Assembly: GCA_964016885.1 (NCBI GenBank)
Contig: OZ024746.1
Span: 51,398,001-51,462,000, forward strand
Length of the DNA stretch: 64,000 bases
Origin: Eledone cirrhosa
Taxonomy: Eukaryota
Direction of reading: 5' to 3'
Shown: positions 59,821 through 61,755 of the stretch, piece by piece
How the letters are laid out: each line of letters starts with the position of its first letter
Numbering within the stretch: position 1 is the stretch's first letter
Translations under genes and position numbers: made by a program
Notes under the pieces: generated by a model
The model's input: the letters and a program-made list of their open reading frames with translations, nothing else
Told to the model about the DNA's origin: nothing
The model's database searches: none

Positions 59821-61755
59821 TAGAAAGATCGAGTATCGAAAAATCGGCGCACGAGTTCACGATAAACGAAATTCGACATGAGCGGCAGAGGGCTCAATAA
59901 TTCAGATGAATCAGAGCTATAACTATCGTTAAAATACCGTCACATATAGAACAAGTCTACAATCAACCATACGATTTAAAATCGATAGAGGAAGATTCGG
60001 GACAAACAGATAAAAAATATCAATAAAACAATACGTCAATAATTTAAATGAATGTAAAATCATACCCGGACCCACTAGACAGGTGTTAAATCTAGCTTCA
60101 TGGGTTTCTGTAAATCCTTAGACTGTACTCTATCAGCTCACATATAAATATAAAAGCCTACTAGAGTAAGCGGAACGGAGTTTTACTTTCTCAACGAGTT
60201 TTTTCCTGGCGGCAGAGGAGCCAACTACCAGTGAAAAACGCACATGGCATTAGACAAGGGAGATGACCCCTATATCCGCGAAAACAATTCGAGTGAATGT
60301 GGAAATACACATATCGAATTAGAGTGCTCAATAGACATGTTAAAATAAAACAAAAGCTATTCATCACTCAATAGAATCGACAAAAATTGAGCAATAAAAT
60401 TAACTGGTGGATAGCTATATCCAGAGCTAAAAATATTAGAAAGATCGAGTATCGAAAAATCGGCGCACGAGTTCACGATAAACGAAATTCGACATGAGCG
60501 GCAGAGGGCTCAATAATTCAGATGAATCAGAGCTATAACTATCGTTAAAATACCGTCACATATAGAACAAGTCTACAATCAACTATACGATTTAAAATCG
60601 ATAGATGAAGATTCGGGACAAACAGATAAAAAATATCAATAAAACAATACGTCAATAATTTAAATGAATGTAAAATCATACCCGGACCCACTAGACAGGT
60701 GTTAAATCTAGCTTCATGGGTTTCTGTAAATCCTTAGACTGTACTCTATCAGCTCACATATAAATATAAAAGCCTACTAGAGTAAGCGGAACGGAGTTTT
60801 ACTTTCTCAACGAGTTTTTTCCTGGCGGCAGAGGAGCCAACTACCAGTGAAAAACGCACATGGCATTAGACAAGGGAGATGACCCCTATATCCGCGAAAA
60901 CAATTCGAGTGAATGTGGAAATACACATATCGAATTAGAGTGCTCAATAGACATGTTAAAATAAAACAAAAGCTATTCATCACTCAATAGAATCGACAAA
61001 AAATGAGCAATAAAATTAACTGGTGGATAGCTATATCCAGAGCTAAAAATATTAGAAAGATCGAGTATCGAAAAATCGGCGCACGAGTTCACGATAAACG
61101 AAATTCGACATGAGCGGCAGAGGGCTCAATAATTCAGATGAATCAGAGCTATAACTATCGTTAAAATACCGTCACATATAGAACAAGTCTACAATCAACC
61201 ATACGATTTAAAATCGATAAAGGAAGATTCGGGACAAACAGATAAAAAATATCAATAAAACAATACGTCAATAATTTAAATGAATGTAAAATCATACCCG
61301 GACCCACTAGACAGGTGTTAAATCTAGCTTCATGGGTTTCTGTAAATCCTTAGACTGTACTCTATCAGCTCACATATAAATATAAAAGCCTACTAGAGTA
61401 AGCGGAACGGAGTTTTACTTTCTCAACGAGTTTTTTCCTGGCGGCAGAGGAGCCAACTACCAGTGAAAAACGCACATGGCATTAGACAAGGGAGATGACC
61501 CCTATATCCGCGAAAACAATTCGAGTGAATGTGGAAATACACATATCGAATTAGAGTGCTCAATAGACATGTTAAAATAAAACAAAAGCTATTCATCACT
61601 CAATAGAATCGACAAAAAATGAGCAATAAAATTAACTGGTGGATAGCTATGTCCAGAGCTAAAAATATTAGAAAGATCGAGTATCGAAAAATCGGCGCAC
61701 GAGTTCACGATAAACGAAATTCGACATGAGCGGCAGAGGGCTCAATAATTCAGAT
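59821..61755. repeat. Tandem array of 3.1 x 616-bp near-identical non-coding units inserted in (TA)n
   Basis: Unit starts at 59821, 60437, 61053 and 61669. Only a handful of substitutions between units. Confidence 0.97.

Follow-up and report, generated by a model that had tools for sequence, protein, structure and literature searches.

Non-LTR retrozymes of animals are non-coding tandem repeats with less than 45 % GC (PMC7229834; 10.64898/2026.07.22.740005), for which lengths of 51-972 bp have been reported (preprint 10.64898/2026.07.22.740005). The family described here agrees with them in these properties, in the presence of a type I hammerhead in each unit, in its dispersal as monomers to multimers and in a genome that harbours Penelope-like elements. 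With 616 nt the unit lies inside the reported range, and an earlier note on this DNA, made from the sequence of the locus, was mistaken in calling it longer than known retrozymes. Unlike the animal non-LTR retrozymes as presented in these accounts, the core has a U3-A8 pair (or U.G, C.A) and an extra base on either side of helix II, the helix II arm comprises 77 nt, helix III is long instead of 1-2 bp, and a fixed priming site and a TA target are visible in the genome. With regard to a descent from Penelope pLTRs (10.64898/2026.07.22.740005), the unit had no homology to the one Penelope-like family compared. The family, known here from DNA alone, fits the animal non-LTR retrozymes on each sequence-level feature. 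Closure of monomers by a host ligase has been shown for other animal retrozymes (PMC7229834), and the return of retrozymes to DNA is a hypothesis in the accounts cited, namely a primed circle copied by an unnamed reverse transcriptase (PMC7229834; 10.64898/2026.07.22.740005).

Neptune and Nematis Penelope-like elements combine a fixed internal start of reverse transcription, 5' truncation, partial tandems and (TA)n (PMC4209133, PMC8557442, PMC11167929), all of which recur in the new family. It also shares the extra base after A9 with the minimal hammerheads of Penelope-like elements, and the U3-A8 core with the Schistosoma Cercyon elements (PMC4209133). In contrast to Neptune and Nematis elements, the unit lacks an ORF, its hammerhead is full and monomeric instead of minimal and dimeric, and another extra base precedes G12. 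Plant LTR retrozymes and hammerhead viroids (PMC7229834) resemble the family in a size of about 600 nt, a branched RNA and a ribozyme predicted to be off in the stablest fold of the circle; the family differs by its type I instead of type III hammerhead, the absence of LTRs, the tandem arrays and the animal genome.

The array in the window and its working strand

The window, a stretch of 64,000 nt of the Eledone cirrhosa genome, contains the array with these features:

59821..61755, minus strand: tandem array of 3 x 616 bp plus 87 bp; the RNA corresponds to the minus strand and its copied 3' end is fixed at 59821
61755, minus strand: truncated 5' end of the RNA
59710..59820, unstranded: (TA)n target run at the fixed end, the last ATAT matching the unit end
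61756..61777, unstranded: short (TA)n at the truncated end

Within the explanation preferred below, which we consider probable as a whole, the array represents a single insertion of a non-coding tandem repeat that is young and dispersed. A period of 616 bp confirmed the three complete and nearly identical units and the 87-bp partial unit reported earlier; five unit positions vary (148, 168, 170, 567 and 599). The longest stop-free stretch of 62 aa agrees with the reported lack of a long ORF, and a reading frame for reverse transcriptase (RT) and GIY-YIG, as in an autonomous Penelope-like element, is absent from the array. The (TA)n flanks and the microhomologies at the junctions, ATAT on the left and AT on the right, were also found as described, as was the richness in CpG, the observed/expected ratio being 1.27 in the array and 0.66 in the window.

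Six hairpins had been listed for the unit. Unit 1 has all of them, but one is disrupted in both other units and another in unit 3, and five of the six are missing from the representatives of subfamilies C and D (defined below). They had been taken from the plus strand, the working strand being the minus strand. In linear folding the plus strand reached a z score of -1.38, with two of 20 shuffles equally good, and the minus strand one of -3.90 with none of 20. The proposed folding as a circle placed both strands ahead of all 40 shuffles (z -2.9 and -3.2) and did not separate them. In the consensus fold of 17 units the minus strand (-181, 14 compensated pairs) surpassed the plus strand (-144, seven compensated pairs). 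Judged by its folding, the RNA of the family is the minus strand. One RNA run gave a single low-depth 144-nt piece, which has no weight for or against expression.

Dispersal and insertion anatomy

The unit had 132 matches at 98-100 % on many contigs when 40 of 1,161 candidates in the 3.0-Gb genome were scored. The fetched loci form subfamilies A to E, with a similarity to the window unit of about 99, 96, 83, 78 and 66-72 %. A pattern joining a TA run to the first unit bases, which covers subfamilies A-D, counted 2,483 insertions genome-wide, a control pattern none. The genome-wide search advised in the earlier note, which would have taken a single locus as evidence against its reading, thus revealed thousands of dispersed insertions. 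A local satellite formed by unequal crossing-over, or an assembly artefact, could account for near-identical units and for some exchange within arrays; the thousands of dispersed copies with a common start already refute it, and we regard its probability as negligible. Contigs from three other public runs span parts or most of the unit, although one run may be the assembly's own source; the unit is therefore not an assembly artefact. A search for a family ending like subfamily A had no match.

The left end is visible in 75 loci, of which 71 begin at unit base 1 (A loci were picked by best similarity, the others via an internal motif; L172 and L173 are apparently one duplicated insertion). In all 71 a TA run lies within 20 nt. 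Another locus, L082, begins at base 1 and is then rearranged, and the remaining three start at unit bases 69, 131 and 132 beside foreign sequence. In the more distant subfamily E, 28 of 28 loci contain an array beginning at unit base 3-15. The earlier note had predicted varied, circularly permuted start points and had counted one shared start register against a retrozyme; the loci share the register. We do not take this as refuting a retrozyme because a Penelope-like RT starts at a fixed internal site in vitro (PMC11167929); by this comparison, variation of the start points was the wrong test.

Among 43 A loci the far end varies between unit positions 39 and 616, with insertion lengths of 419-7,108 bp, and in 37 of the 43 it is followed by TA. 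Flank duplications of at least 15 nt were present at 6 of 43 loci, as against 2 of 255 mismatched pairs. Thus a fixed 3' start, 5' truncation, partial tandems and a (TA)n target, the insertion pattern of Penelope-type elements, occur together in a short non-coding tandem repeat dispersed in the genome as in animal non-LTR retrozymes. The pattern is that of target-primed reverse transcription of a minus-strand RNA from a fixed start with 5' truncation.

Non-autonomous Helitron-like DNA elements also have a fixed end and an A/T target, and obtain tandem copies by a DNA rolling circle. The family shares these traits, and the minus strand of subfamily A even ends in CTA followed by A. However, the letters past CTA vary in subfamilies C, D and E, the second end is not fixed, and some loci have flank duplications; a fold of one RNA strand with many G-U pairs and a hammerhead core and a junction with a Penelope-like 3' end, both treated below, also speak against a Helitron-like origin, which we consider very improbable.

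Some loci were unusual. Three junctions with foreign sequence (L039/L058, L161 and L172) map to unit bases 131-138, within or close to a small hairpin, possibly a hot spot for jumps. At L172:1726-3150 (duplicated in L173) a subfamily D array meets roughly one unit of a sister family F of opposite polarity, the pair being located between TA runs; it may record the priming of two different RNAs from both ends of a target. Very long arrays were seen at C1:81.71-81.75 Mb (about 39 kb, 609-bp spacing) and at C1:49.83-49.84 Mb (19 units, 615-bp spacing). A 5-kb stretch between two units in L032 was identified as an unrelated LINE fragment in TA runs.

The hammerhead fold of the minus strand

Each unit of the array contains a putative hammerhead, given in detail for copy 1:

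60064..60199, minus strand: copy 1 of the variant type I hammerhead, with the cut predicted between 60069 and 60068
60680..60815, minus strand: copy 2, predicted cut between 60685 and 60684
61296..61431, minus strand: copy 3, predicted cut between 61301 and 61300
60199-60195 with 60068-60064, minus strand: copy 1 helix I, ACUCG with CGGGU
60194-60188, minus strand: copy 1 core UUGAGAA (U3-A8)
60187, minus strand: copy 1 extra A after the core
60186-60110, minus strand: copy 1 helix II arm, 77 nt
60109, minus strand: copy 1 extra A before GAAA
60108-60105, minus strand: copy 1 GAAA
60105-60070, minus strand: copy 1 long helix III, then UC and the predicted cut
60069..60684, minus strand: predicted 616-nt monomer that two cuts would free
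60685-61300, minus strand: second predicted 616-nt monomer
59998..60001, minus strand: CCCG able to pair with the CGGG just past the cut in rivalry to helix I, also in sister families

Three helices surround the core, with an A15.1-U16.1 pair and a UH cut site as in hammerheads. A canonical hammerhead has CUGANGA with a C3-G8 pair and GAAA directly after C11.1. Here the core reads UUGAGAA, with one extra base after A9 and another before G12; it is therefore a variant, without a match in Rfam. A scan of the unit against Rfam yielded no ribozyme, only chance matches of miRNA type. The former statement that a canonical hammerhead is lacking holds in so far as Rfam had no match, but it had passed over the variant on the minus strand; its conjecture of a variant or unknown processing motif is borne out by a variant hammerhead fold with covariation support. 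The type I fold expected in each unit of a retrozyme is present in all three copies of the array. An initial parse with CUGAUAGA, located some 58 nt downstream of the core given above, was rejected as it is lost in subfamily E and pairs within the helix II arm; readings as hairpin, HDV-like or other ribozymes did not fit in a comparison by eye with the consensus only.

The three-way junction was the minimum free energy structure of the isolated domain in the window copy and in 16 of 27 representatives, and RNAalifold predicted the identical junction unaided. The covariation check proposed earlier supported the fold over 25 related sequences: 97.4 % of 491 cells were paired (100 % in helix I) and 8 of 20 pairs had changed on both sides. 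None of 500 shuffles reached this score and slid controls gave 29-46 %; kinship can beat shuffles without any structure, thus the slid control and the compensations in helix II weigh more. A relaxed descriptor, composed after the motif had been seen, matched the minus strand once, the plus strand not at all and shuffles in 1 of 3,000 cases. Among 42 clusters anchored outside the core, the core positions had a conservation of 0.86 and the helix II insert one of 0.71; position 7 varied freely, position 3 was U or C and position 8 was A or G. The motif pattern found 5,185 genomic copies, its control seven, and the copies include several sister families. These families, 60-70 % alike, reach a TA run 204-256 nt away from the helix III region, where they end.

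Other observations weaken the case for an active ribozyme. The 3-8 pair, U-A in the window unit, is replaced by U.G in subfamily C and, in much of E, by C.A, and a schistosome test showed no activity for CUGANAA as the core (PMC8490949); both are counted against our preferred explanation. Helix I had a predicted probability of 0.68-0.72 in local windows, which fell to 0-0.01 when the complete monomer or circle was folded; in the circle, the hammerhead form is 2.1 kcal/mol less stable than the minimum. For the competing CCCG/CGGG pairing, the predicted probability in the circle was only 0.16-0.18. In the L198 array 38 nt of the ribozyme are missing from both units, a single-locus event.

The individual features have precedents in the publications cited. 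Among active natural hammerheads, U3-A8 cores are known, as is a U.U mismatch at the stem II base (PMC3088659); U3-A8 and the extra base after A9 are known from PMC4209133, and PMC10085705 describes one or two bases inserted next to the core. Their combination is best read as a new hammerhead variant. Neither this combination nor a retrozyme in this animal group was found in the literature searched; supplements of the cited papers, Repbase or Dfam may contain either. The ribozyme broadens the range of hammerhead cores found in nature, and it shows that thousands of copies in a single genome can escape a survey based on standard descriptors.

The candidate partner and the route of copying

A truncated copy of a young Penelope-like family lies in the window:

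frame 47008-48489, with flanks about 46170-49730: truncated copy of the young Penelope-like family

The family encodes 784-aa frames with an RT and, at the C-terminus, a GIY-YIG domain; 87 of 87 scored matches were at 96-100 %, and a first look gave 45,856 genomic candidates. A CX4CXXC linker is seen in the sequence. This is the Neptune/Nematis layout, which has been linked to (TA)n targets (PMC8557442), and copies of the 784-aa family also end at TA runs. At L039 (= L058, a single locus) a 240-nt piece of the RT plus GIY-YIG element's 3' end (98.75 %) comes after a TA run and continues, without a change of polarity, into the retrozyme at unit base 132 and then into four further units. This chimera, a single case, is best read as a template switch within one reverse transcription event. 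The 784-aa frames and the chimera document the co-occurrence with active Penelope-like elements known for retrozymes, and the element is a candidate for the mobiliser. It is also the family to which the unit had no homology, a result that counts against the preferred explanation. By eye, fragments at 51380-52538 and 55966-56841 resemble two other Penelope-like ORFs, with no Pfam match.

Taken together, we consider it probable that the minus strand carries a conserved variant hammerhead and that its RNA is spread by circles copied into TA microsatellites. Transcription would yield a tandem minus-strand RNA, which the hammerhead likely cuts into 616-nt monomers. A host ligase would close these to circles, as in other animal retrozymes (PMC7229834). 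A Penelope-like protein, putatively the 784-aa element, likely nicks (TA)n and would, like the anole enzyme (PMC11167929), begin reverse transcription at one fixed internal site. Running round the circle until it falls off, the enzyme would leave non-integer tandem copies.

The templates have left traces in the arrays. Units of the same array differ by 1.5 (174 pairs, 16 arrays), those of different arrays by 5.5 (666 pairs), each sampled array having one haplotype; in L054 three variants absent from all other sampled arrays are fixed in 11 of 11 units. Such uniformity fits repeated copying of a single molecule, a result that later homogenisation could mimic. Some private variants recur in non-adjacent units of L036, L040 and L054, therefore an exchange within arrays also occurs later. 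From the predicted cut it is 248 nt downstream to the fixed start, so every insertion above 248 bp was copied through the cut site, either on a circle or on an uncut multimer.

Near the predicted cut, ten insertion ends fall at unit base 248, four at 247 and none to three at each of 249-252 and 255. A further 11 lie at 253/254, six of them with an A microhomology and five after the same CCCG word, and there are more at the TA microhomology 256/257. Inserts below monomer size make up 6 of 10 at base 248 and 13 of 25 elsewhere, hence the 248 class is not richer. The tally was done by eye from 86 and 45 pattern matches, with random matches and continuing copies dropped, L332 and L350 excluded as unclear and the fetched loci used as a check. 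As a trace of cleavage, ends at the cut site are suggestive at most.

The family could also be a non-autonomous Penelope-type tandem element, for which uncut linear read-through multimers are copied by internal initiation and no circle is needed. The hammerhead would then be real, but slow, dependent on a protein or used only to free an end, and long arrays would arise by unequal exchange. Such copying has a precedent in the anole Penelope-like RT, which in vitro initiates inside unprocessed RNA and does not need its cleavage (PMC11167929). The dead ribozyme in both units of L198, the loose 3-8 pairing, the signs of exchange within arrays and a helix I seldom formed in whole-monomer folding are in line with it. 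Linear copying, however, only shortens, whereas young dispersed arrays reach 11.5 units with one haplotype; compensations preserve the three-helix fold in families with a similarity of 60-70 %, and the long helix III suits the cutting of monomers. We regard this, the main alternative, as rather unlikely.

With circles as the preferred templates, the retrozyme-like reading of the earlier note is retained for a dispersed, TA-targeted non-coding tandem retroelement with a variant motif, and given up for the varied starts, the plus-strand hairpins and the excess length. We are evenly divided on a wider reading, in which the families may be a radiation of viroid-sized animal retrozymes with an undescribed hammerhead variant, rolling-circle copied by a Penelope-like enzyme that runs round an RNA circle from a fixed internal start, with thousands of insertions as the record. 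It specifies junction strands of 8 nt and 4 nt, a helix II arm that is large and structured, a competing helix that is conserved, a variant missed by standard descriptors and an enzyme that would jump between its own RNA and the retrozyme. Since the family offers a defined RNA with its target, a start at a single base, a natural chimera and a candidate for the enzyme, the step from retrozyme to DNA can be tested in vitro.

The window contains further elements:

62270-62476; 31059-31261; 33734-33780; about 58100-58460: short fold-back element in (TA)n
30384 (plus), 39871 (plus), 39780 (minus), 45341 (minus): small hammerhead-like motifs
14782-14944, plus strand: 3' fragment of a sister retrozyme family, ending at a TA run
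34777-34830, minus strand: 3' fragment of a sister retrozyme family
1404-4829, plus strand: RT-encoding non-LTR element with an unbroken 1,141-aa frame
5060-8698, plus strand: RT-encoding non-LTR element
40965-43498: ACCACC-type repeat, 2.5 kb
32135-32916: 15-bp minisatellite, 52 copies

In the four small motifs CUGANGA is combined with an extra base behind A9 and with a helix III of minimal size, as described for Penelope pLTRs. The fold-back element, with 2,361 genomic candidates, has two alternative 3' ends about 90 nt apart, and one of its arms, GAAAC-helix-GUC, resembles half a hammerhead. In L116/L178 it is joined directly to a retrozyme array that ends at unit base 248.
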